The notes under the pieces were generated by a model. The model did no database searches. It saw nothing but the letters and a program-made list of their open reading frames with translations, and was not told the DNA's origin. DNA of 64,000 nucleotides, taken from a virus. Taxonomy: Duplodnaviria; Caudoviricetes. The position numbers and the translations under genes were made by a program. Location: the IMG/VR virus record IMGVR_UViG_2890766748_000002, positions 1-64,000 of that record; one strand, written 5' to 3'. Position 1 is the first letter of the stretch, and every line of letters begins with the position of its first letter. Positions 3,878 to 40,284 of the stretch are shown piece by piece.

Positions 3878-3889
3878 ACCTTACCTGCC

Positions 3890-4012: not shown

Positions 4013-4037
4013 TCAGGAATTCATAACTACTCGTTTT

Positions 4038-4298: not shown

Positions 4299-4309
4299 CC
4301 GTCCCTTTA

Positions 4310-4483
4310 GTGAATACCTACACCGTGACTGCTTACATCGTTGAAAACAGCCGACGAAAACCGATTTCAACGATCACGGTTAAAGCCGCCAGCGCTTTTA
4401 TTGCTGAGTATGCTTTTGCCGATAAACTGACAAAAGACAACATGCGGTTTGACTGCGTCGTGGCCACTCAAAAACTCGTTTGA
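4310..4483 (+). CDS. Small hypothetical protein (57 aa, GTG start)
   Basis: Hand-translated MNTYTVTAYIVENSRRK...; fills the gap in the operon. Confidence 0.45.
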   Translation: MNTYTVTAYIVENSRRKPISTITVKAASAFIAEYAFADKLTKDNMRFDCVVATQKLV

Positions 4484-4593
4484 TCCTCTGTTTCCGGCAA
4501 CCATTTATCAGGATTTTAATAAAACGTTTCAGGCTAGAAAAATAGTCCCGTAATTTTTCAATTGATGTTTAACCATAAAGAAGGAAGTGTTTT

Positions 4594-4833
4594 ATGAAGA
4601 AGATTTTCAAAGTATTGTTGCTGGTGGCCGGGGTATGGCTGACGCTCCCGACGCTGTATTTATACGTCGCTTTTCCGATCATGGACGTGCTTGCCGACCA
4701 ACTGGATGAACTGTCGTTGGTGGTGAATGTGGCTTTTATCGGCTTCTTTTCAACGCTCGTTGTGTGGGGCCTTTACCGCTTGTCCCTGTTGTTTACGAAT
4801 CAACCCTATCAAAACGACGTCAAGCATGGATAA
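4594..4833 (+). CDS. Small protein with two transmembrane helices
   Basis: Two hydrophobic helices. Confidence 0.65.
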   Translation: MKKIFKVLLLVAGVWLTLPTLYLYVAFPIMDVLADQLDELSLVVNVAFIGFFSTLVVWGLYRLSLLFTNQPYQNDVKHG

Positions 4834-5230
4834 GATGGCCGAAACGCCGAAGGCGCTGATGGGCGCTACTCCGACTGTTGCGATGGGTGCAACCAAGAAA
4901 AAGAACCTGGTGGTGGCTTACCTGCTGGAAAACATGGCGCTGACGATGCTGACCGAAATCCGGCCGAACGGCCGGGCGGCTAAACTACTGGTCGACGCGG
5001 CCAGCGAAGCCCGGCGGCAATTGATGACGGCCCACACGCCGGACGAATTTGCCCCGATCCTGACGATGAAGAACGCGGCCGTGTTGATGGCCCGGAAACT
5101 GGCCGGGTGTGAGGATGTGGAAACGCTGAACACCTGTCTGCATTACATGGAGCAGTTGAACGAAGGCAAGGTGATGATTATGGAGGACGTTGCCGATCCG
5201 GAAGCTTACGGACTCAAACCCAATCGATAG
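4826..5230 (+). CDS. Phage hypothetical protein
   Basis: ORF 4727..5230; start moved to ATG 4826, which overlaps the upstream stop. Confidence 0.65.
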   Translation: MDKMAETPKALMGATPTVAMGATKKKNLVVAYLLENMALTMLTEIRPNGRAAKLLVDAASEARRQLMTAHTPDEFAPILTMKNAAVLMARKLAGCEDVETLNTCLHYMEQLNEGKVMIMEDVADPEAYGLKPNR

Positions 5231-14979: not shown

Positions 14980-15054
14980 TTCATTATTTACTTGGATTTT
15001 CAATGTATTTTAACTATTTTACTTTTATGAAAAACCAAAAGCTTTATTTAGGAG

Positions 15055-15543
15055 ATGGAAAATACTGTAGAAGACTATATTGATGTAAACGAACGTGTTA
15101 AAGAGTTGAATTGTGAGAGGCCTACCACTTTTTGCTTTCTCCCTGAAAATTTCGAAAATGCAAGTTCTATAAATGAATTTGTATACAACGAGAATACTAT
15201 AACATTTAGAAAACTTTTTAAAAAATTCAATATTAAAGAGGATAAGTTAGAAGACCTATCTTCACAGTTCCGACAAAGAAGATCAAATGATTTATATACC
15301 CCAATGATATTTATCGGGTATTCAATTTTGTCTCAAAATCCAGAGTTGATTTCTGAAGGTTTAAATGTACTATCAAATTATATAACAGATTTATTTAAAG
15401 GAACTATTGGCAAAAAAGAAGTCACGGTTGAATTCGTTATTGAAAGTAAGACAAAGGAAAATTTTAAGAAAGTTACATTTAAGGGTGATCCTGAAAGTTT
15501 AAAATATTTTGATAAAATACTCAAATCTTTTAAAGATGTATAG
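15055..15543 (+). CDS. AT-rich cargo (moron) gene 1, hypothetical
   Basis: Abrupt GC drop; overlaps the next gene. Confidence 0.8.
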   Translation: MENTVEDYIDVNERVKELNCERPTTFCFLPENFENASSINEFVYNENTITFRKLFKKFNIKEDKLEDLSSQFRQRRSNDLYTPMIFIGYSILSQNPELISEGLNVLSNYITDLFKGTIGKKEVTVEFVIESKTKENFKKVTFKGDPESLKYFDKILKSFKDV

Positions 15544-16213
15544 TCAATATCACGATTTAGGCGACCTTTTTGATAAATACAATGAAGTTGTTAATTCCGC
15601 TAATTTAATGGCCTTCTTTACAAGGGATATTAATCTTCAGAAAGGAAACATTGCTTCTCTTTTGGAGTTGATTGAGTACGTTGAGGAATTTAAGCAGGAA
15701 AGTATACAAATTGAGAATGAGGAAAAAGCGAATTTCTTATTATGCTTACAGCTTTATGCACGTGCAATAATGACAGAGTTGGAAATGCTTGTTTCCTTGA
15801 AGGAAGATAATATATCTGAGGCATGGGATTATTTGGTAAGCGCTCAAAATATTGTTTCATCAACTGTAAGAAACTATCCTTTTCCTACTGATGGTTTTTG
15901 TGATCATTTATCCGAATACTCTGCAAGATTTCATCAATATGAAAAATTGTTGTTTCCACAAATTTGGTTTTTGAGCCGAGGTTCAATCGTTAATGAGACC
16001 AAATGTTCTATTTGTGAACAATCTTACTCTATTTGTGATCATTTAAAAGGATATGCTTATATGGGTAAACTCTGTTGTGAAATAACAGAAAAAGTTGTGA
16101 AACTGGAAGAAATTTCCTTTGTAGAAAACCCAAAGGATAAAAGATGTAGGATGACTCATTTTTCTAGCCAAGGAAATAAATATGACGTTTTGACACTTAG
16201 AAAAGTTAGCTAA
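15536..16213 (+). CDS. AT-rich cargo gene 2: helical N-terminus plus Cys-rich, prohead-protease-like C-terminus
   Basis: CSIC-x6-CDH-x2-GYAYMG...LEEISFVENP. Confidence 0.75.
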   Translation: MYSQYHDLGDLFDKYNEVVNSANLMAFFTRDINLQKGNIASLLELIEYVEEFKQESIQIENEEKANFLLCLQLYARAIMTELEMLVSLKEDNISEAWDYLVSAQNIVSSTVRNYPFPTDGFCDHLSEYSARFHQYEKLLFPQIWFLSRGSIVNETKCSICEQSYSICDHLKGYAYMGKLCCEITEKVVKLEEISFVENPKDKRCRMTHFSSQGNKYDVLTLRKVS

Positions 16214-16240
16214 GTCTTGCTAATTAGAGGTTATTAAAAG

Positions 16241-16270
16241 AAAGCCCGGGTGGAATCCACCCGGGCTTTT
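16241..16270 (+). terminator. Terminator closing the moron
   Basis: AAAGCCCGGGTGGA/TCCACCCGGGCTTT. Confidence 0.85.
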
Positions 16271-27017: not shown

Positions 27018-27532
27018 CAGACTTTTTTGAATCCTTCGAAGAAGACGCGGCCGAGATTGCCCGGGAAGGCATCGAAGCGTTTCGGCGGGCCATTGAACGC
27101 TACGGGCTGACGCTGACGGAAGACCTGAAACGGGACTTTCAATATCACGTCATCCGTTCGGCCACACAATTGATTTTAGAATTTGATTTCCGGCAATACG
27201 GCCGGTTTAAGGATATGGCCATGCTGCGGTATGCGTCGCACATGCCGCCGGTGGAAGCGATGGAATTCTTTGTCGATAAAGTGGGGCTGGATCAGTTCGC
27301 CTACGTCGATGGCTACAAGGGAAAGCAGGTTCCCACGGTGAAGAACGCAACGGCCCGGATTGCCTGGGCCATTGCAATGGGCCGAAGGCGGGTTCCGAGC
27401 GTCGCCCGGGGCTACCGGGGAACCTGGTATAACAGTACTAAGGTGGAGATTATCAATTCGGCTAAAAATCGAATCCATAAGAGAATTTCAGAGTTTAGCA
27501 TGGTATCATTAAAAAGCTCAATTAACTTTTGA
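27014..27532 (+). CDS. Neck/tail-completion-like protein
   Basis: TEDLKRDF...YGRFKD; PPVEAM; 3' end turns AT-rich. Confidence 0.6.
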   Translation: MTDFFESFEEDAAEIAREGIEAFRRAIERYGLTLTEDLKRDFQYHVIRSATQLILEFDFRQYGRFKDMAMLRYASHMPPVEAMEFFVDKVGLDQFAYVDGYKGKQVPTVKNATARIAWAIAMGRRRVPSVARGYRGTWYNSTKVEIINSAKNRIHKRISEFSMVSLKSSINF

Positions 27533-27679
27533 CAAAACGAAGTAAAAAGTAAATAATACTAGAGTTTATCCAGTGATAATGGAAAAAACATATGAGTAAC
27601 AAAATAACACCCAACGGAGGGCTGTCGCCTGTAAGGTAATTAATAGGAAATATAACTCTTTCCTTGGTCGAAGAAATTC

Positions 27680-27745
27680 AATATGATAAATGCTTTTTAA
27701 AAAATTGGAAAATTTTCCAATTTTTTAAAAAGCATTTATCATATT
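27680..27745. repeat. Perfect 66-bp palindrome (33-bp arms, no loop)
   Basis: AATATGATAAATGCTTTTTAAAAAATTGGAAAA|TTTTCCAATTTTTTAAAAAGCATTTATCATATT. Confidence 0.95.
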
Positions 27746-27841
27746 TATAAAGAAAATCATCATCTAAAATATTAATAATTCCAAGTAATTAAATATGTAT
27801 ATATTAATTTTATTTCATAATTAACTCTAAATTCTTGCAGT

Positions 27842-28621
27842 ATGAAAAATTTGATAACAAAATTCTCGTTCTTTATGATCTCATTTTTTTTGTTTGGTTG
27901 TCCTGATAAAAAAAATGATTTTACTGATAAGGTAGTTTTAATTGAAGGGACTAACCCGCCTGAGAAAATAAGTATTCAAGTTCCAAATGATTGTCAAAAA
28001 TTTGGAGACGGAGTAAAGGTATCCATTGACGCCTTAGTGAAATATAGTGAAAAGGAGTTAGGTTCTCTGAAGGGCAATTTTGAAAAGGCAAAAATTATTA
28101 GTGAATATGCTCAAAGGATTCAGACAATTTGTATAGCTCAGTGCAATTTAGTTAGAACGTCTACCGTGATAAGTACAAAAAAATCAGATTACGATTTGTA
28201 TTCAAAAATTGTGAGTGATTATACAGAATATCAAAAAATAAGAGACTTGATAACTAGCAATCCGACTGAAAGCCAAAAAAATAAAATAACCGATTCTATA
28301 CTTGAAGTCTACGAGGATCTTTATGATTCAAAAAAAGATGAGTTAATAGAAAATGCCGAAGCAGTTACATTTACTATAAACGCGTCTGTTGGACAAAACA
28401 TTACTTTATACATTGGCGATGAAATGATTGCAGGTACAGTACCTGATGCAAATGGGATCGCTACATTGACAATACCTCAGAAGTTTATGGTGCCGAAACC
28501 AAAAGAGGTAGTCAAAGTAAGAATCAAAATAACTTCTATTGGTTTTGCCGAAACAAACAAAACATTTTCACTTGGTGAAATCGTAAAGTCTTCTGTTGAT
28601 AAAACGCCTTTACAAATATGA
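27842..28621 (+). CDS. AT-rich putative lipoprotein
   Basis: Signal peptide with lipobox LFGC. Confidence 0.8.
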   Translation: MKNLITKFSFFMISFFLFGCPDKKNDFTDKVVLIEGTNPPEKISIQVPNDCQKFGDGVKVSIDALVKYSEKELGSLKGNFEKAKIISEYAQRIQTICIAQCNLVRTSTVISTKKSDYDLYSKIVSDYTEYQKIRDLITSNPTESQKNKITDSILEVYEDLYDSKKDELIENAEAVTFTINASVGQNITLYIGDEMIAGTVPDANGIATLTIPQKFMVPKPKEVVKVRIKITSIGFAETNKTFSLGEIVKSSVDKTPLQI

Positions 28622-29456
28622 GCTTATGTGGAGGATGGAGCCTAAGAAGATTCACTCATGGTCAGATATTATACCAATATTTTTTATCTTTCCTTTAACT
28701 ATAGCGATCCCTCCTAGAAACGGTTTTGAACAAAGAACTGTTTATGTTAAAGGAACAATGCAAGAAATCATAATTTCTGTTCCAAAAAGATGTGACCGAT
28801 TTAGTGAAGAAGTTAGTGAAATTTTTACTTCTATTCAAAAATTGAGCCATAAGAATATAGAGGTAGCTACTCAAAACTACGAAAAATTAAAAATTTTGAA
28901 TGAAAATGCAGATAGGTTAAAAGCTATTTGTGTTGCACAATGTCATTTTATTCGGACCTCTATTGTTATAGACCCAAATGAGTCAGATTATAGCTTCTAT
29001 TCGAATCTTTTGAAAAACTATATCGATTATCAAAAATTTAAGGACTTCTTAAATGGAGAATTTGTTGATCAGGAAAAAATAACTAATAATATGCTGGCAA
29101 TGTACAGGAATGTATATGAAACCAAGAAGCCAGAATTAGAATGTTTGGTCAAAGATTTTATATTTGCTATTAATTCTCCAATTAATGGTCAAGTAGAATT
29201 GTATATAAATGGAGAATTCGTAGCTAGTGCTCCCTCAAATCGAAATGGAAAAGCAATATTGACTATCCCTAAAGAATCTATGATTACTCATCCTGATTCA
29301 ACTTCAAAAGTTGACATAGTGATCATAATGTCAAATAATAGAAAGAAATATAAATCTATATTAGGCACAATAGTCAAAGAGGCTGATGAAAAAGGAGTGG
29401 TTGATACAGTACAAAGAAAACAATTTAGGAATCCGCTTAAGCCATTTGATCCTTAG
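28596..29456 (+). CDS. AT-rich membrane-anchored paralog of 27842 (start probably ATG 28626 or 28635)
   Basis: Shares VPxxCxxF, ICxAQCxxxRTS and SDYxxYS with the upstream gene. Confidence 0.75.
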   Translation: MIKRLYKYELMWRMEPKKIHSWSDIIPIFFIFPLTIAIPPRNGFEQRTVYVKGTMQEIIISVPKRCDRFSEEVSEIFTSIQKLSHKNIEVATQNYEKLKILNENADRLKAICVAQCHFIRTSIVIDPNESDYSFYSNLLKNYIDYQKFKDFLNGEFVDQEKITNNMLAMYRNVYETKKPELECLVKDFIFAINSPINGQVELYINGEFVASAPSNRNGKAILTIPKESMITHPDSTSKVDIVIIMSNNRKKYKSILGTIVKEADEKGVVDTVQRKQFRNPLKPFDP

Positions 29457-29552
29457 TTTTATTTGTTTTTTTATTATATTTTTTATAAAAACTAATATTT
29501 TAGAATAAGCTATCTATTTTAGCAAATACTTATGTTTTGATATTTAAAACCC

Positions 29553-29587
29553 GTCCTGTTCCGGCAAAAAGCTTTGGTCCAACTTGG
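29553..29587 (+). promoter_or_regulatory. Putative late promoter GTCCT-N22-CAACTTGG
   Basis: Motif and spacing; at the AT-to-GC boundary. Confidence 0.6.
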
Positions 29588-29610
29588 GTCAAAGCTTTTT
29601 TCATTTTGCC

Positions 29611-32600
29611 ATGAACAACACGGAAGTCAGTAAGCTGAAGGTGGAAATTGACGGCGACGAAGCGCAGGAAACGTTGCTTTCACTTCAGACCGAAGCCAAA
29701 GAGATCAATAAGGAGTTGCGCCGGATGAAGGAAGCCGGAGAAGAAGGCTCCGACGCCTGGAAGGAAATGAAGGTCCGGCAAAAGGAGGTCAACGAAGAAA
29801 TCCGGGAAATGACCCGGAATCTGGACCTGAATGATGCCACGATGACCGAGCTACGCGCCAACGCCCGGCTGTTGAACCGGGAATTGGACGGCCTGAAAGT
29901 TGGCTCCGAAGAATGGATTGCCAAAATGAAGGAAATCGCCGAAGTCGAAAACCGGATTTCGGACGTGAGGGCCGAAATGAAGCGGCTGAAGGGCGAAGGC
30001 GAAGAACAAACCGGCCTGTGGGACAACTTCAAAGCGGGTTTTGCCGGGGCGTTCACCTTTGAAGCGGTGAAGGAAGCCGCTCAGGCGGTTTGGGATTTCG
30101 GCAAAGAAGTGTTGGACACCGGGGCCAAATTTGAGAAGTATCAAAATATTCTCAATACCACCCTGGGCGATACCGAGAAAGGAGCGGAAGCGTTCGAAAT
30201 GCTTCAGAGCGTAGCGGCCAAAACCAACTTTACGTTGGACGAAATGACCGACAGCTACATCAAAATGGCGAATCGGGGATTGCGGCCGGGTCAGGATGAG
30301 TTGATGAAGCTGGCCGAGGTGGCCAACACAACCGGAAAACCGCTCGGTGATCTGGTGGAAGCCATCAACGACGTCAGCAATACCGATCGGTGGAACGAAT
30401 TTGGCATCAAGGCCCAAACCAACGGGGATAAAGTCAGCCTGACGTTTAAGGGCGTCACCCAGGAGGTGGACAAGTCGGAAGCCGGGGTGTTAAAGGCCAT
30501 TACCGCGTTCGGCGAAATGAACGGCGTGATGGGCATGACGGCCACAATTGCCGGGGGCGCTGAAGGCCAGCTTTCGAACATTGATGACAAGTTAGATAGC
30601 CTTTATGCCGGGATTTTCAACAAAGGCAAAGAAGGCTTCAACGGATTGATTTCGTGGTTTTCGACCCTGATTTCTGTGTTAGTCGATGCCGTTAAATACT
30701 CCGATCCGGTGTTGCAGGTGTTTGACTCGGTGAATACCATTTTTGCCAGCACCTTCCGAAGTATCGGCCAGTTAGTCGGTGGTTTCCTGGGCTTAAACAG
30801 CGAATCGTTTACCACGCAAAAAGTCATGGAAGGGCTAGGCGTGGTTTTCAATGTGATCCTGACGCCCATCCGCCTGGCGCTGACTACTGTTCAATTGTTT
30901 GCCGATGGCTTGAACGCCCTTCAGAATAAAGGCAAGGAAGTGATGAACTTCTTCGGGGCTACCTTCAAGATTGATCCCAAAGCGAATTTTGATACACTGG
31001 CGAAAAATGCAGCCGCCAACTTCAAATCCATTGAAGATTCGTGGACCAAAACCGAGAAAAGCCGGGAGACTCAAACCAAAGGAACAAATAAAAGTATTGA
31101 AGACGATTCAAAGAAATCCGGCCAAACGATCAGTGCTGAAGCCAAAAAAGAAGCCGAAAAACGGGCCAAAGACCAGGAGAAAGCCGAAACCGACAGTCTG
31201 AAGAAAATTCAGGATATGAAGGTGAAGGCCATCACCGACGAGCGTGAACGCAGAATTGCCGAAATCAACCTTCAGTATCAGCGGGAAGAAGAAGCGGTTA
31301 AAAAATCGGTGGCCAGCCAGAAGACAAAAAACGAGCAACTGCAATTGCTGGCTCAGGAGCGGGAAAACAAGATTGATAAAGTCGAAGACGAATTCCGGAA
31401 GAAAAAGGAGAAGGAGGAAGCCGACGCTCAGAACCGGATTGACCAACTCAAGATCAAGTTGATTCAGGACGATTCGCAACGCAAGATTGCCGAACTGAAC
31501 GCCCAGGCGCAACGCGATATTCAGACCATCAATACCACGATCAAGAACGAAACGCAGAAGGCCGAAGCCATCCGGTTGATCAATGAAAAGCTAACCCGGG
31601 ATGTGGAAGCCGTCAATGACAAACATCGGCAGGATGAAGAGAAGAAAAACCAGCAAAAGCGGGATCAGGAACTGAAAGCTGAAAAGCAACTATTTGACAA
31701 TCAGTTTAAAGAAGCCACTTTCAATGCTGATTTGAATTTGGCGCTGGCTAAAGACAATGCAGACAAAATCTATCAGGCCAAACTTGCCAAACTACAGGCG
31801 GAATATGCCTACAATAAACAGAAGCTTCAATTGGAAGCCGACGAAGAAAAGGCCAAAAACCAAACGCTGATCCAGGATGCCGACAAACGGGCGGCTGCGG
31901 AACAGGCCATTGACGGCCGTCTGAAGGCGCAATTGTCGGCCGCCGATGCCAAATTCCAAAACGACAAAACGGCACTCGATCAGGAACATACGGCTAAACG
32001 CAAGGCCAATGCCGATCAGTTTTTCAGCGCCCTGAATGGGTTGATGACCGGCGACTACAATGCGTTTATGAATTTCCTGAACCAGAAGTTGGCTAGTGAT
32101 GCAGCCGCCAACAACCAACGTTTGCAGGATTTTGCCCGCTCGGGTCAGGAGACGTTAGGCATTGCTGGCCAGGTGGTGGGGGCGTTGAACACACTCAACG
32201 AGCAATACACGAAACGGCAGATTGACCGGATTCATCAGGAACGCGACGAAGCCATTGCCCAGAAGCAGAAGCAAATCGCGGAAATTGAAGCCTTCGAAAA
32301 AGAATATGAGAAAAAGAAGCTTCAGTTGACCAAAGAAATGAATGCTGCGGCCACGGCCGACGAGAAAAAGGCTACCCAACTGAAGCTTCAGAACCTGGAA
32401 AATGAATACAATTCGCGGTTGGATGCCAAAGAACAGTTGGAAGGAGGTATTGATGACATCCGGAGTGAAGCCGACGAAAAGGAGAAAGCCGCCAAAGTGA
32501 AGGCGTTCAACCGGGAGAAGACGTTAAACATTGCGGCCGCGCTGATCAATGCTGCCCAGGCGGCCCTGAAGTCGCTGGCCACGATGGGGTTCCCGCTCGG

Positions 32601-33501
32601 GCTGATTGGAGTGGCCACATCGGCGGTGTTGGCCGGGGTGCAAATCGGAATCATCAAAAACCAGAAACCACCTTCATACCGCGCTGGGGGATATGTCCGC
32701 AACGCCGGTGTTCCGGCTGGGCCTTTGCATGGCCGACGCTACGGCGAATCCGGAATTTCCTTGACGCGCCGGGATACGGGTCAGGAAGTGGGCGAAATGG
32801 AAGGCGATGAGCCTATTATGATTTTGAGCCGCAACACCTACAAAAACAATCGGCCCGTGATTGATAAACTGCTTCATAGCTCCCTGCATCGGAACGGCGC
32901 TCCGATCTACGGCAACGGCGGGATCAACGACGGGGGCAGCTACCGGGATTATCTGGAACCCTTGGGCTACGGAAACTCGTACCTGTTTGGGTCGAAGAAA
33001 GCCAAAAAAGCCGCCAAAGAAGCGGAAGCCGAAGCCAAACAAATGGCTGCCGAGCAGGAAGCGGAAATGGCTAAAATGCAGGCCGAAATGGACGCAATGG
33101 CTACCGATGGGGGTGGGGGCTACGATTCGGGCGGTTTGCCCTCGGACGGGGTGCATGTGGCTGGGGCCGATGGCGACGCGACAGGCACCATCTCGACCAC
33201 CAATTCCCAGATTGAAGCCAGCCAGGAAATGATGGCGGCTATTGCCGACAATACGGAAATGACCGTGAAAGCCCTGACTGAGATGCAAACGTTTATAGCA
33301 GACATGCTGCTGCCCACGCTGAAGGCTCAGGGAGTAGAGTTGTCGACCAGCGTAAACGGCAAGGTGGATGAACTGATTACGGTGGAACGTACGGCAAACA
33401 GTTATCTGGACCGCATAGCGGCCAAAGAACTGTCGGTGCAAACGTTCGTCAATGTCATGAACCAAATCAGCGTTGTGGCCGGGGATTCCGATCTGAAATA
33501 A
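29611..33501 (+). CDS. Tape measure protein
   Basis: About 1300 aa coiled-coil; AAKTNFTLDEM tape-measure motif; GGYV...GPLH...EMEGDE. Confidence 0.9.
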   Translation: MNNTEVSKLKVEIDGDEAQETLLSLQTEAKEINKELRRMKEAGEEGSDAWKEMKVRQKEVNEEIREMTRNLDLNDATMTELRANARLLNRELDGLKVGSEEWIAKMKEIAEVENRISDVRAEMKRLKGEGEEQTGLWDNFKAGFAGAFTFEAVKEAAQAVWDFGKEVLDTGAKFEKYQNILNTTLGDTEKGAEAFEMLQSVAAKTNFTLDEMTDSYIKMANRGLRPGQDELMKLAEVANTTGKPLGDLVEAINDVSNTDRWNEFGIKAQTNGDKVSLTFKGVTQEVDKSEAGVLKAITAFGEMNGVMGMTATIAGGAEGQLSNIDDKLDSLYAGIFNKGKEGFNGLISWFSTLISVLVDAVKYSDPVLQVFDSVNTIFASTFRSIGQLVGGFLGLNSESFTTQKVMEGLGVVFNVILTPIRLALTTVQLFADGLNALQNKGKEVMNFFGATFKIDPKANFDTLAKNAAANFKSIEDSWTKTEKSRETQTKGTNKSIEDDSKKSGQTISAEAKKEAEKRAKDQEKAETDSLKKIQDMKVKAITDERERRIAEINLQYQREEEAVKKSVASQKTKNEQLQLLAQERENKIDKVEDEFRKKKEKEEADAQNRIDQLKIKLIQDDSQRKIAELNAQAQRDIQTINTTIKNETQKAEAIRLINEKLTRDVEAVNDKHRQDEEKKNQQKRDQELKAEKQLFDNQFKEATFNADLNLALAKDNADKIYQAKLAKLQAEYAYNKQKLQLEADEEKAKNQTLIQDADKRAAAEQAIDGRLKAQLSAADAKFQNDKTALDQEHTAKRKANADQFFSALNGLMTGDYNAFMNFLNQKLASDAAANNQRLQDFARSGQETLGIAGQVVGALNTLNEQYTKRQIDRIHQERDEAIAQKQKQIAEIEAFEKEYEKKKLQLTKEMNAAATADEKKATQLKLQNLENEYNSRLDAKEQLEGGIDDIRSEADEKEKAAKVKAFNREKTLNIAAALINAAQAALKSLATMGFPLGLIGVATSAVLAGVQIGIIKNQKPPSYRAGGYVRNAGVPAGPLHGRRYGESGISLTRRDTGQEVGEMEGDEPIMILSRNTYKNNRPVIDKLLHSSLHRNGAPIYGNGGINDGGSYRDYLEPLGYGNSYLFGSKKAKKAAKEAEAEAKQMAAEQEAEMAKMQAEMDAMATDGGGGYDSGGLPSDGVHVAGADGDATGTISTTNSQIEASQEMMAAIADNTEMTVKALTEMQTFIADMLLPTLKAQGVELSTSVNGKVDELITVERTANSYLDRIAAKELSVQTFVNVMNQISVVAGDSDLK

Positions 33502-33563: not shown

Positions 33564-34979
33564 ATGGTCGATATACGAATTGATGGGTACAGCGTCGACA
33601 TGACGCCGGGAACGCGGCTGACGCTCGAACGGTTTAACCCGATGCTGAATTTTACGTCGGTGCAGGGTTCGCGGGTATACGGTTTTTCGTTGCCCGACAC
33701 ACCCTTGAACCGGCGGGTTTTGGGGTTTGTCAATCAAGCCCAGGTACCCTATAAAAACCGGCGGTTTTACTGCGAAAAATACGTCAATACGCAACTGGTG
33801 GAACGGGGTTATGTGAAAGTGCAGGATGTTCCGGCCGGAAGCTACAACCTGTATTTTACGCAAAACCTGGGCGAAATCTTTGGCGATCTGCAAAACGTGC
33901 TGTTGCCGGATATTGATTTCGGGACGGTTCCGGCTCCGGTGGCTCCGACGCTGGCGGCCAATCATCTGACGGATGCTGTGGCGTTTCCGATGATCGAAAA
34001 TCCGGGGTTCTACGGCAACAACGCGGGCGTCGTGGGTTTCAACAACGCCATGAACCGCGTCAGCGCCGGAGAGATGGACACGAAAGCCCGGGTGCCAATG
34101 GTGTTTTTATCCTGGTTGTTTGAGCAGTTTGGACAGAAGGTAGGGTGGCAGTTTGGCGGTACTTTCCTGGAAGACCCGGACGTGTTGCGGCTGTTGCTGT
34201 TCAACCTGTACAGCCTGGACGATCAGCCGACGATCCAGTACCGAAACCACCTACCGGAACTGACGTTTCCGGGACTATTGATTGCGCTCCGGCAACTGTT
34301 CAACCTGTATCTAGATTTCGACGTCCGGCGTCGGGTGTGTACGCTCGACTACACAGACGACATTCTGAAGGCTCCCACGGTGCTGGATTGGACGGCCAAA
34401 GCGGAGCCGACCCACACAAAGCTTCCGGAACTGCAAAACCGGTTGGAACTGTCCTACGACATCGACGGCAACGATGCGCTGATGAAACCGATCCCGGCGG
34501 ATTTCGACAAATACACCACTGCCGAAACTCCGGCGACTGCCGGGGGGAGCCTGGTCCCGATCCGAAGCCGGTTCGGCACGTTGCAGACAAACAGCGCTAC
34601 GGGCCTGGCGATGACGTCACAGCCAGGAATAAGCCTGTATAACAAAGATTCAGCGGCTCGGGGCTTGCCCAGGCTGTTATTCTGGAATGGCGTGATTGAC
34701 GGCAAACCGATTGCTACCCACGCCATCGGCGACCGCCGGTTGGTGTGGAACGGCGCGGGGAACCTGGTGGACCGGCATTGGCGCATGTTCGAGCGCTTCA
34801 AAGCCAATACCTTTTTGATCCGGAAAATCCTGTACCTGACTCCGGCGGATTTGGCCACGTTCCGTTTTCGGAACAAAGTCCACATCCGGGGCGTGAATTA
34901 CCTGATTGGCAGCATGAAGGCGGTGTTGGGAGCCGATGAAAATATTATTCCGGCGGAAGTGGAATTGTGGAAGGTTTAG
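33564..34979 (+). CDS. Distal tail/hub protein
   Basis: Follows the tape measure gene; YGFSLPDTPLNRRVLG; NKVHIRGVNYLI. Confidence 0.75.
   Translation: MVDIRIDGYSVDMTPGTRLTLERFNPMLNFTSVQGSRVYGFSLPDTPLNRRVLGFVNQAQVPYKNRRFYCEKYVNTQLVERGYVKVQDVPAGSYNLYFTQNLGEIFGDLQNVLLPDIDFGTVPAPVAPTLAANHLTDAVAFPMIENPGFYGNNAGVVGFNNAMNRVSAGEMDTKARVPMVFLSWLFEQFGQKVGWQFGGTFLEDPDVLRLLLFNLYSLDDQPTIQYRNHLPELTFPGLLIALRQLFNLYLDFDVRRRVCTLDYTDDILKAPTVLDWTAKAEPTHTKLPELQNRLELSYDIDGNDALMKPIPADFDKYTTAETPATAGGSLVPIRSRFGTLQTNSATGLAMTSQPGISLYNKDSAARGLPRLLFWNGVIDGKPIATHAIGDRRLVWNGAGNLVDRHWRMFERFKANTFLIRKILYLTPADLATFRFRNKVHIRGVNYLIGSMKAVLGADENIIPAEVELWKV
34909..34979 (+). repeat. Gene-end repeat copy 0 (intact 3' end of the tail gene)
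   Basis: GCAGCATGAAGGCGGTG...AATATTATTCCGGCGGAAGTGGAATTGTGGAAGGTTTAG. Confidence 0.9.
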
Positions 34980-35020
34980 TTAAATTGTAGAATAGATTTA
35001 AATTATATACCCTTATCACA

Positions 35021-35230
35021 ATGGCTAACTTTATACGAGTTCACGAGCTTACTACTAAAATTGAGAACGTCCTTAATGTTGCAAAAATCGTTCGATTGAA
35101 GCCGACGGAAGATAGTTTCGGTAATCCTAAATGTCTAATTATATTCCAAGATGACGGTCTGACCGTTGATGAAACCTTTGAGGATGTAATTAAGAAAATC
35201 GAAGACGCTGCAAGCATTGACATTCTTTAA
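35021..35230 (+). CDS. Small cargo protein (69 aa)
   Basis: MANFIRV...LNVAKIV...VDETFEDVIKKI; followed by a hairpin. Confidence 0.7.
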   Translation: MANFIRVHELTTKIENVLNVAKIVRLKPTEDSFGNPKCLIIFQDDGLTVDETFEDVIKKIEDAASIDIL

Positions 35231-35288
35231 AAAGGAATATTTTGAATACCATAAAATCGCAGTTCAAAAAATTAAAGAATAATTGATG

Positions 35289-35324
35289 ACGAAACCTGTC
35301 CGATCTGGACAGGTTTCGTTGTTT
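35289..35324 (+). terminator. Terminator hairpin
   Basis: ACGAAACCTGTCC-gatct-GGACAGGTTTCGT. Confidence 0.75.
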
Positions 35325-35475
35325 CGGGTATAAATTGCCTATACAAAATTTTAGGATTGGCAAATCTATACGTATTCATTTTTGAACGCCTAATTTATAA
35401 ACAACACTGATTGTGTGAATAAAATAGCAAAATCCATTTTTGTGTCCTGCAAATACATAAGCTCTTCATAAATAA

Positions 35476-35541
35476 ATGAATGCGGTGTAGGGAATAGATG
35501 ATAATATTACCCAGGCAGAAGTGGAATTGTAGAAGGTGTGA
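35476..35541 (+). repeat. Gene-end repeat copy 1 (degenerate)
   Basis: Ungapped, about 52/66 identical to 34914-34979. Confidence 0.9.
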
Positions 35542-35599
35542 AAATATTCTTTAGTCTAAATCTATGGTTTTCTTAATAATTTGGTGAATTACATTTGAA

Positions 35600-37282
35600 T
35601 TGCATATTCTTGAGAAAAAACTTATGACAGTCTTTTTATATCCTACGCTGAAATATTCAGATATTTTTCCAATGGACGAAAGTGTTTCTGTGGAAGATTT
35701 ACTAGGAGCTTATGATTTTGATATACTATTAAATATTGCTCTATCTATCGATAGTATCAACATATCTGGTTATCATGGGGAAAATGGAGCTGTATTTAAC
35801 TTAAGCGAAACACTAGATAGATTTCATGTTGAATACGGTGAAGAAAGGAGTAAGATTAGGTCTTCTATCCTTTCTATTGGCAAGGCAATAGTTAACAGGG
35901 TAAGTACATTGAGATTAATTGATATAATCCTGAGAATCGGTCATCAAACTAATTATAATGATAAAAAGGTAGGCTTGAATATGCTGAAGGCTTATTTGTT
36001 GATTAATCAGAAAATACATGATAAGTATTATGAATCAAGGAGCCGAGCTATAGAACTAGGTTACGATGTGCCTGTATTTCAAGATATATTTTTATTGATC
36101 CATTCCGTAAGGTTTGAACATCATACAAATTTTGACATATATTTCCCAAACTTGGTTAAATCGAAATTGTATTTAAAATTTTGTAAAGGATATCCAGCTC
36201 TGAATAGTCACCTCGATGATTTTCTCAGAAGAAAAAAATGTAGAGACATAGATGACTTTTTTAGAAAATATTTTCCTTTGATCGAATTTATGATTTCTAA
36301 ATTTGATGAAAGATACCAGATGATAGAAGTGCCATCGGAGCACAATGAATATGAAGAATTATGTCATTATTTAGATGAAATGTCAATTGAGAAAAGTATT
36401 GACTTTGACTCCTGCGATTTTGCATATATTAGAAGTAAGCCAATGTATAAAATTCGAAATGGCCGTTATGTGGTGATAAATGAGATTTTTTTAATTGAGA
36501 AAATTTACAAGAGCTTATATTTTGATTTTAAAGAAATAAATAGTACTCAATTAAGCCCTATAAAAAACTTCAGACAAGAGTTTACTACACAATTTTCTGA
36601 AAAATATTTGCTATATACTGTGTTAGATAAAGTTTATAGAGAGAATAAAGGTTCAAATTTTATCACCTTTTCAGGTGAAGAATTAAAAATAAAACTAGTT
36701 AATGCAGAGCCTGATTATTACATAAGAAAATCTAATAAAATATTATTGATTGAGAATAAAGATAATATGATAAATGGCGTTGAGTTAGATAATAGTGATT
36801 TCGAAAAGATTATTTCAGTGTTCAAGGATAGAATTAATAAGGCTTCCCGTCAAATAATCGTAAATATAGATCGATGTTTGGGTCAAAAAATAGAAGATAA
36901 AGAAATTGTTAATCAAGAAATTTATCCTGTAATGATTGTTCATGATAATATTTTTATGACCCCTGCTTTAAATCTATTAGCCAGGAGTTGGTTTAAAGGT
37001 CTCTTGGGAACTCAAGATAAATATTCAAGAATTAAACCTTTAACAATTATCTCAATAGATTTTTTCATAAATTATAGTTGGTTTATTAGAAGTAATAAAA
37101 TTAATTTATTTAATTATATTGATAAATATCACAAGTTCATTGATAATAAAGTTTCTGAAAATAATAGCCAAAAAAGCCATTATTCATTTTTTCATTATAT
37201 CAAAAAAAGCTCAGGTACTGATGAGATGAAAAGATTATATAAAGATAGGTCTTTAATTGTTGGGAGATCATCTTTGTTTTAG
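35600..37282 (+). CDS. AT-rich cargo protein with a C-terminal PD-(D/E)xK nuclease-like motif; candidate defence gene (start may be ATG 35624)
   Basis: EPDYYIRKSNKILLIENKD. Confidence 0.75.
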   Translation: MHILEKKLMTVFLYPTLKYSDIFPMDESVSVEDLLGAYDFDILLNIALSIDSINISGYHGENGAVFNLSETLDRFHVEYGEERSKIRSSILSIGKAIVNRVSTLRLIDIILRIGHQTNYNDKKVGLNMLKAYLLINQKIHDKYYESRSRAIELGYDVPVFQDIFLLIHSVRFEHHTNFDIYFPNLVKSKLYLKFCKGYPALNSHLDDFLRRKKCRDIDDFFRKYFPLIEFMISKFDERYQMIEVPSEHNEYEELCHYLDEMSIEKSIDFDSCDFAYIRSKPMYKIRNGRYVVINEIFLIEKIYKSLYFDFKEINSTQLSPIKNFRQEFTTQFSEKYLLYTVLDKVYRENKGSNFITFSGEELKIKLVNAEPDYYIRKSNKILLIENKDNMINGVELDNSDFEKIISVFKDRINKASRQIIVNIDRCLGQKIEDKEIVNQEIYPVMIVHDNIFMTPALNLLARSWFKGLLGTQDKYSRIKPLTIISIDFFINYSWFIRSNKINLFNYIDKYHKFIDNKVSENNSQKSHYSFFHYIKKSSGTDEMKRLYKDRSLIVGRSSLF

Positions 37283-37408
37283 GATAGAATAAAAGCTAAG
37301 TCTTTGTAACAGGCTTTTAATTAGGGGAATGATTTTGTTTGTCGTCATTAATTGGATCACACAGATGAAACTGATTGTGAACCAAACAAATCGAAATACT
37401 CCTTCATA

Positions 37409-37479
37409 GCAGTATAAAGACAACGTCAGGGTCCGATGTAAATATTATTTCGGCGGAAGTGCAATTGTGAAAGGTTTAA
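37409..37479 (+). repeat. Gene-end repeat copy 2 (degenerate)
   Basis: Ungapped, about 56/71 identical to 34909-34979. Confidence 0.9.
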
Positions 37480-37582
37480 TACTAAAGATATTTTCTTTAA
37501 ATTGTATTTAATTTTTCTTTTATGCAATTTAATATTATGCGAATATTTGAGTATTATTTATTGAAACCGGAATCTTATAAAG

Positions 37583-38674
37583 TTAAAACATATTGCTAAA
37601 AACTGATTCATCATAATCAATATTCCACCTACTTTTGGCTTCAGCAAGCATTTTGTCAATTGTACCATTTCTCTTTGCTACCTTAAATAAATATTTATCT
37701 TTGGAGGATTCATCTATTATTGAGTGAAACTCAACGAATTCTGAATCATCTAATTCTACTTCCATTGTTAGTAGATCTCCTTCAGATGGACCAGAAATTG
37801 CAAGTGTTGTAGCTCCGCGATAATTCCATTTTTGTCTTGCCTCCTTATACATTTCAATTAATACGCCTTTTTCTATTGCCTTTTCATGTAAATATTTTTC
37901 TTTATCTTCATCAGACTTTAAAATTGTAAAATGAAAGTATTCGTCTTCCAATAGTTCGACAATTGAGGTTATTTTTTCATTTGTTAGGCTATTAGTAAAT
38001 GAAATAGGCATTCTAGCAGAACTTACTAATGGTTTAGGATATATATTTCTAGTTACATTATCATATTTGAAAAACTCAAATTCTAGATGGAATGGAAGGA
38101 AAGAACTTGCAATAATTTTTAAATCATCTGAAATGCCAGTTTTATTCGGCCTAGGTGGAATTATTGATCTGTCAATAGTATATTTTTTAAAATGTGGAAT
38201 AATATTTTCAGAGTATAGAATACTGAACCACATATTTATAACATTAACCATTAGATCAATTAAATATAGGTTTTCGTTGTTATTTGATAGAATACTGATA
38301 TTTTTTTCTAAAACTCTATATTCTCCATCATTATCTTCATATTCAATGACTCTAATCATCTCCTTTATAGAGCTTGCAGAGGTTACAACCGGATTATTTC
38401 TGTCTATTTCATAATGCTTACTTGCGTCTACAATATTGCCCAGTATCTGGTAATCTGAGCATTTTTTTATCAAGCGTGGTTTTACATCTTTTTTAAAGTG
38501 CTCTTTTTTATATTTAGCGTAGTGTTCCCCAAAATGATACAATAATGTTGCAGCATGTAAACCAGTATTAATGTCTTCACCAGTCCCAAATACTTTAGTT
38601 TGCTGCACTTTAGCATAATTCTGGAAAGAATTAACTACTCCAAGGAAAAAATGGCTCATTAAATCTTGATACAT
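37583..38674 (-). CDS. AT-rich cargo protein with a duplicated C-terminal domain
   Basis: 363-aa ORF; two repeats, VEL...KEKYL...EARQKWN and VEL...KDKYL...EAKSRWN. Confidence 0.8.
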   Translation of the reverse strand: MYQDLMSHFFLGVVNSFQNYAKVQQTKVFGTGEDINTGLHAATLLYHFGEHYAKYKKEHFKKDVKPRLIKKCSDYQILGNIVDASKHYEIDRNNPVVTSASSIKEMIRVIEYEDNDGEYRVLEKNISILSNNNENLYLIDLMVNVINMWFSILYSENIIPHFKKYTIDRSIIPPRPNKTGISDDLKIIASSFLPFHLEFEFFKYDNVTRNIYPKPLVSSARMPISFTNSLTNEKITSIVELLEDEYFHFTILKSDEDKEKYLHEKAIEKGVLIEMYKEARQKWNYRGATTLAISGPSEGDLLTMEVELDDSEFVEFHSIIDESSKDKYLFKVAKRNGTIDKMLAEAKSRWNIDYDESVFSNMF

Positions 38675-38733
38675 ATGAAATGAAAGATTGATTTACAGCT
38701 TAATTATATGGAACACTATGATTAAGTGTTGTT

Positions 38734-40002
38734 TTAAGCTACATCCTGATTTTCATCCTGCTTCCTGAACAGCTTATCAAATACATTGATTTTCTCCTTC
38801 TTCCGTTTCTCGCTTATGTGGACATATTTCATAGTTGTTTCCAACTTTGAATGACCCATATAATCCTTCAGGGTAACCACATCGCCCCCTAGTTCGATGA
38901 AAACCGTTCCGAAGGTGTGCCGGGCCGTGTGGGTTGTCATTTTGAAATCAATGCCAACGTGTTTTCCGATTGTGTCTAACAGCCGGTTGGTGTGTTGTTC
39001 GCTGAACGTATCAAATAACCGTCCCAGCGATGTGGTCACCAGCTTTCGAGCTGCCGGGTGGATCGGAACACGGACTACTTTATGATAACGATTGCGGTTT
39101 TTAACCGGAATAATAATGAGCCAGTCGCCCTTAATATTTTCATGATTGACGGTCTTAGCGTCGCTAATCCGAAGCCCTGTAAAACAGCTAAATAAAAAGT
39201 GTCGTAAAACCTTCCGCCAGGCGTCGGCCGTATTGCTGGCTTCAAATAGGGTCAATAAGCTCATGAGTTGTTCCTCTGTCAACGCATTGGGGAATGTCTC
39301 TGGTTTGAGAACTTTGACGGATTTGAACGGGTCATCGAATACGTTTTTATCTTCCAGGGCGATTCGAACGTAAGTCCGGATGTCCTTCATGCCCTTTTCA
39401 ACCGTCGATGGTGCATTGCCCAGGGCGGATCGTAAATACGCCCGGAAGTTTTCGAGCAGCTTAGGGGTAAGGTTGTTGAACGGCAGGGGCGGGGTTTGGC
39501 CGTCGATGGTGTCAGGATTTTTTTTGCGGCCGGATTTCGCATTGACTTCTCGGGTCCAAAACGCTTTTAATTTGTTTAGGGAAGCAAGGTGGCCGTCACG
39601 CGTTTGCTTTTCAATCTTTCTCCGTTTGAACCGTTCCTTTGCTTCAGTTTCCCAGAAGGACAGAAAATCCTTTCGGGATGTGAAAGTTCTATAATCCCGG
39701 ATCAATAATTCCATCGTAAGCGTCTTGCCAGATAGCCGATAGGATTTGAAAATCTCATTGACCTTCCCCATTTCCGTGTCAATCATCAAGGTATAGTCCG
39801 TGTAATCCTGATCATTTTTCGAACGGGGCAAGAGCTTCCCGGCAGCTTTGTCAAAATGTGTGGCTGGCCAATTCAACTTGAGTGGAATCCGGTCTTTGGC
39901 TCCATCAATTGACACATAAATGTAGAGAGCAGACGTACCGTCCGCTTTTTGATAATCATCCTTGATTATCAGCTTCTTAAAGAAATTTTGAACATTTCCC
40001 AT
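38734..40002 (-). CDS. int: Tyrosine integrase (arm-binding, SAM-like and catalytic domains)
   Basis: FTGLRISD, HTARHTF, MGHS, TMKY; start moved to ATG 40002. Confidence 0.95.
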   Translation of the reverse strand: MGNVQNFFKKLIIKDDYQKADGTSALYIYVSIDGAKDRIPLKLNWPATHFDKAAGKLLPRSKNDQDYTDYTLMIDTEMGKVNEIFKSYRLSGKTLTMELLIRDYRTFTSRKDFLSFWETEAKERFKRRKIEKQTRDGHLASLNKLKAFWTREVNAKSGRKKNPDTIDGQTPPLPFNNLTPKLLENFRAYLRSALGNAPSTVEKGMKDIRTYVRIALEDKNVFDDPFKSVKVLKPETFPNALTEEQLMSLLTLFEASNTADAWRKVLRHFLFSCFTGLRISDAKTVNHENIKGDWLIIIPVKNRNRYHKVVRVPIHPAARKLVTTSLGRLFDTFSEQHTNRLLDTIGKHVGIDFKMTTHTARHTFGTVFIELGGDVVTLKDYMGHSKLETTMKYVHISEKRKKEKINVFDKLFRKQDENQDVA

Positions 40003-40071
40003 TAGGAACAGGCTAGGAACAGGAAGGTAAAAAACCGGGGTGTTTCCAGAATTAGGAATTGTATTAGGAAC
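40003..40071. repeat. TAGGAA direct repeats, putative integrase arm-type sites
   Basis: Four TAGGAA(C/T) copies in two pairs between int and att. Confidence 0.55.
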
Positions 40072-40112
40072 CGAAAAAGTGCCATTACAGCGTATGTAGG
40101 CACTTTTTCGGT
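40070..40112. terminator. 14-bp inverted repeat next to the att core
   Basis: ACCGAAAAAGTGCC...GGCACTTTTTCGGT. Confidence 0.7.
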
Positions 40113-40118
40113 ATGTTC

Positions 40119-40139
40119 GTGGTCCCACCGGAAGTTGAC
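40119..40139 (-). other. Putative att junction resembling a tRNA 3' end
   Basis: Minus strand ...TCCGGTGGGACCAC; no tRNA 5' half adjacent. Confidence 0.6.
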
Positions 40140-40284
40140 CCCCTTCCATTTTTTGCCTTTCTATCGGTCAGCATCCGCCTTGATAGAAGTCAAACCCGTC
40201 AGCGTTGATCCGGGGCTATTTTTAGTAATGAAGAAAGGGGAGTTGAACCTATTGAGCCGGATGAAGGCCGAAGGATGGGTATAA

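Follow-up and report, generated by a model that had tools for sequence, protein, structure and literature searches.

The DNA between tail gene T and the integrase gene (int) of this prophage is, in our reading, an array of three copies of one cargo slot, each running from a T stop to an int stop, with p69, p560, and p363 as their occupants. The T-int region is the lineage's cargo slot, and we propose with moderate confidence that it was triplicated in tandem, each copy with a different occupant, by recombination between related phages. Behind this proposal stand repeats of the T 3′ end, the decay of those repeats, a slot of variable content in relatives, a tandem prophage array, and an analogous arrangement at a related locus, L145.

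The window (the whole stretch of DNA analyzed, 64,000 nt, positions 1 to 64,000 of IMG/VR record IMGVR_UViG_2890766748_000002) includes the array, which lies in a 43.8-kb prophage of a soil bacterium of the Spirosomaceae. That prophage is itself a member of a tandem array at tRNA-Arg(CCT). The features of the region, in window coordinates, are as follows.

29584-33501, plus strand: tape measure protein gene, 1305 aa, upstream context (PHROG tape-measure families, E values 1e-41 to 5e-4)
33564-34979, plus strand: gene T, an ORF of 471 aa immediately behind the tape measure gene, putative tail protein; left flank of the slot
34909-34979, plus strand: in-use T 3′ end (last 23 codons and stop), reference for the repeat search and continuous with the rest of the gene
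35021-35230, plus strand: p69, slot A gene, 69 aa, 37% identical to a 68-aa gene at the same position in L004
35385-35467, no strand: J1, probable decayed spacer plus int 3′ end (source 38690-38800), ending CTCTTC; ATA filler at 35468-35470
35471-35541, plus strand: displaced T 3′-end copy 1, a pseudo-copy with three internal in-frame stops, 52/71 identical
35600-37282, plus strand: p560, slot B gene, 560 aa, PD-(D/E)xK nuclease-like; annotated elsewhere as 552 aa from ATG 35624
37316-37405, no strand: J2, probable decayed spacer plus int 3′ end, ending CTCCTTC (int 38794-38800); ATA filler at 37406-37408
37409-37479, plus strand: displaced T 3′-end copy 2, a pseudo-copy with Trp changed to TGA, 56/71 identical
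37583-38674, minus strand: p363, slot C gene, an orphan ORF of 363 aa, co-oriented with int and downstream of it
38734-40002, minus strand: int, prophage tyrosine integrase (Pfam Arm-DNA-bind_5, Phage_int_SAM_5, and Phage_integrase); right flank of the slot
40119-40133, no strand: att core GTGGTCCCACCGGAA, 15 nt, a tRNA-Arg 3′ piece that marks where prophage 1 ends on the right (extended contig searched with blastn and aragorn)

Genes T and int are convergent, and the DNA between them is variable and low in GC. Gene T gave no match in Pfam, PHROG, or NCBIfam; it is present in 81 of 400 other genomes of the family that were searched, and its atlas neighbors are viral clusters, with weak leads to Phage-tail_3 and Sipho_Gp37. 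The longest int ORF reaches 40149, and the likely int start is ATG 40002: alignments with relatives begin at residue 35, and a hairpin and arm-type TTCCTAAT repeats are found upstream of that ATG. The att core GTGGTCCCACCGGAA occurs three times in all: a second copy is found 3.7 kb to the left of the window, and a 13-nt match falls in tRNA-Arg(CCT), 51 kb to the right, this tRNA-Arg being common to prophage 1 and element 2. The integrase is orthologous to end-of-prophage integrases beside tRNA att sites, including those of relatives without repeats. It is the prophage's own tRNA-Arg integrase and serves tRNA-Arg integration only, with an att core unrelated to the joints of the array. The T end was also considered as a pseudo-att site for int and was rejected, as the two share only CGGAAGT, 45 nt from the joint.

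Displaced gene ends and their joints

A repeat search recovered one ungapped family of three copies: 34909-34978 (reference), 35471-35540 (74%), and 37409-37478 (80%). The recurrence of the T end described in an earlier note on this DNA is real (52/71 and 56/71 positions over 71 nt, without gaps, the copies ending at the stop position, where TAG has become TGA or TAA). The note is also right on CTTCATA, directly to the left of both copies, and on ACTGATTGTG, found at 35406 and again at 37370, and its G>A and C>T type of decay is borne out by GC-to-AT changes at 12 of the 19 differences in copy 1 and 10 of the 15 in copy 2. A 23-nt core matched all three places with at most 2 mismatches, compared to 0/100 shuffles. 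No more T-end copies were found in the 7.9-Mb genome, and no gene-end repeats were found at the window's other low-GC islands (15 to 16 kb and 27.5 to 29.5 kb).

Both copies are dead reading frames (Trp changed to TAG or TGA, plus further stops), with GC of 0.38 and 0.39 compared to 0.49 in the gene end. They differ from the gene T end at 21 to 27% of positions and from each other at 41% (42/71 identical), and the longest identical runs among the T-end repeats are now 11 to 13 nt. Both are closest to the window's own T allele, which suggests that the recombination partners were close relatives. The T end in use is the native one: identity to the end in the closest relative (L. arboricola, which lacks the insertion) is 93% and continuous across position -70, and this end is among the best-conserved parts of gene T at the DNA level (93%, versus 62 to 88% elsewhere). 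An end brought in by an inserted element, and integration into the T 3′ end that restored the gene, are thus not supported.

The two copies share a junction string, CT(C)CTTC-ATA, that is absent from gene T, and within the 70 nt they have no derived substitution in common, so that only the joint is common to them. Local alignments of the copies' left and right flanks, whether to one another or to T sequence further upstream, gave no significant similarity, nor was similarity between J1 and J2 beyond the junction significant (P = 0.03 to 0.1). Identical in position and in the ATA filler, the two joints point to one illegitimate joint, multiplied later by homologous recombination. The same start and the same left-hand string are expected equally from one joint copied twice and from a site-specific process; in the latter respect the identical joint position counts against our model.

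The DNA left of each copy is suggestive, by its sequence, of a decayed int 3′ end. J1 and J2 align collinearly to the spacer and int 3′ end (38690-38800), stopping exactly at the joint. In right-anchored alignments, which were devised after the CTCCTTC match had been seen, J1 scored z = 4.8 against the int 3′ region (0/3000 shuffles) and J2 scored z = 4.3 (P = 3e-4), while local alignment of J2 gave P = 0.04 to 0.06. The window's own int allele was the best of 14 alleles for both (P = 0.013 for J1). Judged against real AT-rich sequence, the J-int homology is weak, which tells against the model: for the 67 nt of int coding sequence, J1 and J2 both ranked 194th of 2676 windows (about the top 7%), and in a whole-region ranking J2 fell outside the top 15 of 656 windows. 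The int position to which the 10-mer ACTGATTGTG aligns also differs between J1 and J2. Each internal boundary would then consist of spacer plus the last ~67 nt of int, followed by ATA and the last 70 nt of T; we infer this int origin, as well as the order and type of the recombination events set out below.

Slot genes and related loci

The closest relative, itself free of repeats, has a p69 homologue in the same place, which makes p69 the ancestral slot occupant rather than newly captured cargo. A hairpin (35291-35317) can be read from the sequence after p69; a consensus sigma-70/terminator scan gave no terminator there. The second occupant, p560, carries D364...E377-x-K379, invariant in 11 homologues. 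Its AF2 model (pLDDT 78) resembles the Nt.BspD6I and FokI cleavage domains (VIA Z of 10 over 150 to 177 residues), and the combination of a D...(D/E)xK motif with a predicted restriction-endonuclease-like fold places p560 in the PD-(D/E)xK nuclease superfamily. Upx is an anti-phage defence protein of about 1200 aa with dual PD-(D/E)xK nuclease domains (PMC13099982). The p560 model aligned to the N-terminal half of Upx (residues 38 to 517) with a Z of 12.2 over 377 residues, a value within the chance range for helical models; p560 is half the length of Upx and had no PADLOC match.

The third occupant, p363, is convergent with p560, and copy 2 therefore heads no gene. A search of 5.8 billion proteins returned no homologue besides p363 itself, and no family matched; the single-sequence AF2 model was too poor for a structure search. 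Searches for cargo donors yielded only p560 relatives that are at most 32% identical and located elsewhere, and for p363 no homologue. Pfam, PHROGs, PADLOC, and NCBIfam gave no recombinase domain for any of the three genes. The repeat search found nothing within the slots, and p560 and p363 are unlike p69 and unlike each other. The repeats thus delimit different cargo as the earlier note had stated, although copy 2 does not head any. Its idea of repeated capture of defence-type cargo survives in part, given a variable-cargo spot and the nuclease-like p560, but not for the ancestral p69. The slot supplies two candidate anti-phage genes, one of a PD-(D/E)xK family (~560 to 620 aa) and the orphan p363.

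Displaced T ends were found in two of 61 related loci (the window and L145). The earlier note had counted repeat-free relatives against its own proposal, and relatives are indeed largely repeat-free, with 59 of the 61 loci having no displaced T end. The closest relative has a single slot, T-p68-int, without repeats. Where int lies downstream of T (17 loci), the gap measures 18 to 3758 nt with a GC of 0.28 to 0.44, versus 0.44 to 0.59 in T, and the cargo differs among L004, L005, and L006. The slot thus shows the fixed position between conserved genes and the variable, low-GC content of an accessory hotspot.

The distant locus L145 reads T, cargo, R1 joined to a T-end copy (102 nt, 89%), cargo, R2 joined to a ~30-nt T-end relic, cargo, and right-flank gene, where R1 and R2 are 80 to 91% copies of the right-flank gene 3′ end. 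Its two joints lie at different positions, contain right-flank gene DNA, and have no palindromic core. As read from their sequence, they are the signature of recombination between related phage genomes, and this upholds homologous exchange between related phages, which the earlier note had named as its alternative. Displaced int 3′ ends also lie beside cargo in L114 (55 nt, 87%), L043, and L054; no T-end relic was detectable beside them.

In L. arboricola, a relic (T end, 311-aa gene, internally deleted int, and att) adjoins an intact prophage at tRNA-Met. An "L146 end" match inside the int genes of L048 and L111 is probably spurious, and the L146 end-extension presumably ran into antisense int DNA of that deleted remnant. 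Decayed J and T-end DNA had been suspected in the L. arboricola T-p68 intergenic region; the match was not significant and was dropped. A degenerate T-end DNA pattern run on 185k genomes returned only the three known relatives and chance matches, a viral collection returned only the same three prophages, and a metagenome scan with T returned nothing. No closer relative with slot gain or loss was found in the genome, viral, or metagenome collections.

Origin of the array

In the scenario that we favor, two related phage genomes would have come to lie head to tail, either as tandem prophages at one tRNA or as a concatemer or dimer. An illegitimate deletion of about one genome length, with its end points just within the dispensable copies of int and T, would then have left one viable genome with both cargos and one joint. 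Homologous recombination at the T-end or int-end repeats, nearly identical at that time, would have copied the joint-bounded unit once more, whether by unequal crossover between relatives with different cargo or by circle loop-out and re-insertion, and such homologous copying would account for both joints sharing position and filler. The redundant gene ends would subsequently have decayed under AT-biased mutation and are now too diverged to recombine. No dedicated recombinase would take part at any step.

A site-specific origin is unlikely. It would hold that small integrase-less elements are inserted by a recombinase acting in trans at CTGATT-GGCAGC-ATGAAG in T, with an attP in which J, ending CTTCAT, is the left arm and AGCAGC the 6-nt overlap, and which also includes a mimic of the final 70 nt of T; every insertion would restore T and shift the previous end downstream, as in an integron or tRNA island. 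The copies do begin at the same nucleotide after the same ~10-nt string, ACTGATTGTG is common to J1 and J2, and the string together with the gene's ATGAAG reads as a 6-6-6 inverted repeat, CTTCAT-N6-ATGAAG, at which a small hairpin is predicted. Yet the cassettes have no recombinase and no family match, the adjacent int is orthologous to integrases of repeat-free relatives and uses the unrelated core GTGGTCCCACCGGAA, and p69, the most recent cassette on this reading, is the ancestral gene at its position. The native T end has no composition or identity break at -70, and J1 and J2 are not significantly similar beyond the junction. Folded as single-stranded DNA on both strands, J plus repeat gave z scores of -2.15 to +0.70 with no common hairpin, no better than shuffles on the relevant strands, and copy 2 with its J likewise folded no better than shuffles. 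The L145 joints, which differ in position, carry right-flank gene DNA, and lack a palindromic core, also speak against it. The integron-like capture suggested previously is unsupported on the same grounds, with no cassette recombinase, no attC-like fold, and an int that is a tRNA-Arg integrase. A particular form of the idea, in which mini-circles carrying a defence-type gene, a T-end mimic, and a CTTCAT-N6-ATGAAG core are inserted by a host or phage recombinase in trans, we regard as quite improbable; if true, such mini-circle cassettes would give temperate phages an exchangeable, integron-like defence array.

We likewise consider it rather improbable that the stretch from T -70 to int +67 was triplicated within one genome and its cargo later replaced or deleted, with no exchange between phages. 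Identical joints (position and ATA filler) are a product of tandem amplification, the best matches to the copies are the T and int alleles of the window itself, and both copies have decayed to a similar extent (19 and 15 differences of 71). However, the genes in the three slots are unrelated and show no sign of paralogy, and swapping cargo while keeping both relic flanks still needs recombination with other genomes, so that internal duplication merges into our main model rather than competing with it. A functional role, in which a promoter, leader, or RNA element in the T end drives each cargo gene, is very improbable: the T end is well conserved at the DNA level (93%, versus 62 to 88%) and the in-use end and copy 1 sit 41 to 83 nt upstream of a gene, but copy 2 heads no gene and the next gene is convergent, divergence (21 to 27% from the gene, 41% between copies) looks like neutral AT drift, there is no fold signal, the TAnnTTTG box for p560 (a motif of Bacteroidota promoters) lies downstream of copy 1 and outside it, and 59 of 61 relatives have cargo without T-end copies.

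The array of three slots thus looks like a set of recombination scars between related phages that calls for no new kind of machinery; site-specific capture found no support (no attC-like fold, no cassette recombinase, and an unrelated att core). The uptake and stacking of accessory and defence genes by temperate phages are usually inferred from presence/absence patterns alone. Here, the boundaries keep fossil ends of the flanking genes, which makes the events readable from the sequence. Cargo of related phages was probably stacked, not swapped, by way of intermediates, tandem or concatemeric, at a tRNA site that the phages had in common. Considering that the related but distinct L145 has the same layout, this stacking route may be general for slots between convergent conserved genes.

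Comparison with known systems

Like mobile integrons, the array stacks one-gene cassettes beside a tyrosine recombinase gene with a repeat at each boundary. Unlike integrons (IntI, attI, attC), its int has the Arm-DNA-bind_5/SAM_5 phage architecture and a tRNA att site, its repeats lack an attC-like fold, its cassette orientations are mixed, and no attI or Pc was identified in it. Gene-end direct repeats bracket foreign DNA here as they do in elements that use gene 3′ ends (e14 and phage 21 in icd, tRNA islands), and the whole prophage sits at tRNA-Arg in the manner of tRNA islands with tandem arrays. In contrast to the e14/icd type, the T-end repeats come with no element recombinase, the end in use is native and not element-borne, and the flank of the displaced end resembles int DNA, not an att arm.

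The lambda b region is a moron or accessory hotspot of the kind found beside int or att of temperate phages, and the slot is comparable to it in position. Rousset and colleagues are said to have described, in 2022, defence hotspots in P2 and P4. As in moron hotspots, variable, low-GC, non-essential, and often defence-type genes occupy a fixed place beside int. Moron hotspots are usually presented as a single slot that can have alternative contents, whereas here the slot occurs three times and fossil flanks mark its boundaries.

In T4-type phages, modular shuffling is mediated by PeSLs, cassettes of a functional promoter plus a stem-loop that are present in many copies, and recombination between them, which can also release mini-circles, inserts, deletes, or swaps genes (Arbiol et al. 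2010, PMC2839356; Comeau et al. 2014, PMC4122927). The repeats in the window differ from PeSLs in being dead relics of the 3′ ends of both flanking genes, in belonging to a temperate siphovirus-like prophage, and in being now too diverged to recombine. In both systems, short repeated boundary sequences, here T-end copies in the window and copies of both the T end and the right flank in L145, lie on either side of non-essential ORFan genes within hyperplastic regions, and no dedicated recombinase is needed.

Decayed tail-gene ends in the cargo region

The window spans positions 31930 to 95929 of contig 24 in a 7.9-Mb Spirosomaceae genome with relatives in Larkinella and Spirosoma. Genes there follow the order tape measure, putative tail gene T, p69, copy 1, p560, copy 2, p363 (minus strand), and tyrosine integrase (int; Arm-DNA-bind_5, SAM_5, and Phage_integrase domains), where p69, p560, and p363 are the cargo genes and copies 1 and 2 are displaced T 3' ends. 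The GC content of 35 to 39 kb is 28 to 33%, versus ~54% for the phage.

The last 70 to 71 nt of T (33564-34979, 471 aa) were found again twice downstream, free of gaps, at 35471-35541 (copy 1; 74% identity by repeat search, 52/71 by direct count) and 37409-37479 (copy 2; 80%, 56/71). Similarity of both copies to T breaks off exactly at the T stop codon, and CT(C)CTTC-ATA stands directly left of both, where T has ACCTGATTG, as the earlier note had described. A 23-nt core matched all three sites at ≤2 mismatches (0 in 100 shuffles), and the 7.9-Mb genome held no further T-end copies. Both copies are nearest to the window's own T allele. They are dead as reading frames, with Trp changed to TAG or TGA plus other stops. 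GC-to-AT changes account for 12 of the 19 differences from T in copy 1 and for 10 of the 15 in copy 2 (GC of 0.49 in the T end versus 0.38 to 0.39 in the copies), bearing out the decay proposed from G>A and C>T differences. The copies are identical to each other at 42/71 positions and have no common derived substitution within 70 nt. With identical runs of at most 13 nt between repeats today, they are effectively inert in their present form. The earlier note had copy 2 heading a cargo gene, but it does not, since p363 lies on the minus strand.

The variable slot in relatives and a distant analogue

T homologues were present in 81 of the 400 other family genomes searched. A total of 60 loci were taken with 9 to 12 kb of downstream sequence (two were cut by contig ends), and each locus was searched for displaced T ends with the 3'-terminal 150 nt of every one of the 61 alleles. 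In the 17 loci with an integrase after T, the gap ranged from 18 to 3758 nt, had a GC content of 0.28 to 0.44 (versus 0.44 to 0.59 for T), and differed in contents from locus to locus. The T-int gap is thus a classical variable cargo slot, flanked by conserved genes that converge on it, in line with the variable cargo expected in the earlier note. Displaced T ends occurred only in the window and in L145, a distant locus whose T is 35% identical.

The closest relative, Larkinella arboricola (T 84% identical), has one slot only: T is followed by p68, a terminator, and then int. The 37% identity between p68 and p69 indicates that p69 is ancestral in the slot rather than newly captured cargo. The in-use T end is 93% identical to that of L. 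arboricola, with no break in identity at -70; it is therefore native and not brought by an inserted element, contrary to the suggestion of an integration restoring the gene's 3' end.

L145 (G082 contig 1, 6611547-6621914) carries a three-slot array at positions 1303-5030, with the following features:
1-1413, T, followed by two low-GC genes
3341-3430, R1, a 90-nt element
3459-3560, T-end copy, 102 nt, 89% identical to its own T end, almost directly after R1 and followed by a gene
4289-4378, R2, plus a ~30-nt T-end relic, followed by a gene
right end of the array, R3, the 3' end of a conserved minus-strand right-flank gene

The right-flank gene 3' end is thus present in three copies, and this layout indicates that the internal boundaries are joints of a right-flank gene 3' end with a T 3' end. 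The two joints are at different positions. One L145 cargo protein contains DUF2971.

Displaced integrase 3' ends also lie beside cargo at three other loci, L114 (55 nt, 87%), L043, and L054. In L043 (the same as L006, Spirosoma telluris; oriented locus, 2415-4913), the integrase is apparently in two pieces, a 3' part (aa 360-467, 72% identical) and a body (aa 23-396), that overlap by 37 residues and are ~1 kb apart, with two minus-strand ORFs between them. Another locus, L146 (G168 contig 10, 162631-172631), is a remnant with a deletion that brings the N-terminal part of an integrase (aa 5-176) next to T aa 257-471, the junction falling 39 nt past the T stop.

Tandem prophages and the origin of the joints

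A 15-nt core, GTGGTCCCACCGGAA, is at 40119-40133, with a second copy outside the window, 3.7 kb to its left; tRNA-Arg(CCT), at window coordinate 91388, has 13 nt of it. The elements around these sites are as follows (window coordinates):
-3683 to 40133, prophage 1, ~43.8 kb
38734-40149, longest integrase ORF (minus strand), 471 aa, running over the att/tRNA-like piece
40134 to 91388, second element, ~51 kb, with its own integrase
90532-91317, second integrase, unrelated or distant (24% identical), belonging to the second element
91388-91460, complementary strand, intact tRNA-Arg(CCT), 27 kb right of the window

The three core sites and the second integrase indicate that prophage 1 and the second element are arranged in tandem at a single tRNA. 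For the prophage 1 integrase, the most likely start is ATG 40002 (422 aa), upstream of which are four TTCCTA(A/G) repeats (three are TTCCTAAT), a hairpin (CGAAAAAGTGCC...GGCACTTTTTCG), and a tRNA-like 3' piece. Elsewhere in the genome, a second T copy, 54% identical, near the end of contig 244 (1231-2637) implies another related prophage. On L. arboricola (G097) contig 5, at ~313.3 to 315.0 kb (L061/L062) and just outside attL, an older related prophage has left a fossil made up of 186 nt of the T 3' end, a low-GC gene of 311 aa, an int with an internal deletion (3' 235 nt and 5' 17 nt kept), and an att copy (144 nt of int promoter/att, 90% identical). The intact prophage adjoining it is 41 kb, at tRNA-Met. 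The group thus offers two documented cases of related phages residing in tandem at the same tRNA.

If the process proposed below for L145 also acted in the window, one would expect the stretches left of the two T-end copies to come from the int 3' end. These stretches, J1 (~35385-35467) and J2 (~37316-37405), gave z scores of 4.8 and 4.3 (3000 shuffles) in right-anchored alignment to 38690-38800. Both alignments are collinear and finish at the joint, and J2 ends in CTCCTTC, the same as int at 38794-38800. The window's own integrase was the best of 14 alleles for both (P of 0.013 for J1 and 0.06 for J2 once the maximum was taken). However, when real AT-rich windows served as an empirical null, J1 and J2 both reached only the top 7% with the 67 coding nt of int, the rank of J2 for the whole region was unremarkable, and a 10-mer common to both (ACTGATTGTG) aligned to different int positions. 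Given this weaker match and the discordant placement, J1 and J2 are probably, rather than certainly, integrase 3' relics.

Such joints, as in L145, probably arise from two related genomes lying head to tail. Deletion of about one genome length, from the dispensable right-flank gene copy to the dispensable T copy, would preserve the two cargos along with a single intact copy of every essential gene, with the joint marking the boundary. Since the window joints are alike in position and ATA filler, we infer that a single illegitimate joint formed first and was later multiplied by homologous recombination at T-end or int-end repeats, then still nearly identical. The route may have been an unequal crossover involving close relatives whose cargo differed, or circle loop-out and re-insertion.

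The integron-like accretion of the earlier note, in which cassettes are captured site specifically at the T end, would account for both copies beginning at the identical nucleotide and for a 6-6-6 inverted repeat (CTTCAT-AGCAGC-ATGAAG) at the joint. We consider it unlikely: the cassettes encode no recombinase, a search of J and the repeat found no attC-like fold, the core of the neighboring integrase is unrelated to the joint, p69 is not a recent cassette, and the L145 joints vary and consist of flank DNA.

Cargo genes and comparison with known systems

The p560 family (~560 to 620 aa) has members at ≤32% identity in 21 of the 400 other family genomes, with D364...E377-x-K379 invariant. The AF2 model of p560 (pLDDT of 78) resembles PD-(D/E)xK cleavage domains, those of Nt.BspD6I and FokI at Z scores of 9 to 10 and those of Can2, McrC, and Shedu at 5 to 8. 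A further match, with a Z of 12.2 over 377 residues, is to the N-terminal half of Upx (PDB 9wuf), a dual-nuclease defense protein (PMC13099982). PADLOC gave no hit for p560, and there was no sequence-level match to Upx. It is a plausible candidate for a defense role. In keeping with the suggestion of defense-type cargo, p560 is nuclease-like by motif and model. p363 is an orphan for which the homologue search was empty and no usable structure model was obtained.

Two other low-GC islands (30 to 39% GC) lie inside the structural region, at 27456-29551 and 15000-16250. Both are missing from the three relatives compared at the DNA level, and neither showed flanking-gene-end repeats. Positions ~27660-27760 gave an unexpectedly good alignment to the AT-rich spacer that lies below int, probably a composition effect.

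The array is not an integron, and it is not an integrative element of the e14 type. In its position and cargo slot it resembles moron hotspots adjoining int, for example the b region of lambda and the hotspots of P2 and P4. Functionally, it resembles repeat-mediated modular shuffling by the PeSLs and mini-circles of T4-type phages (PMC2839356). What is new is descriptive: in two independent lineages the slot is present three times over, and its boundaries keep fossils of the gene ends on both sides.
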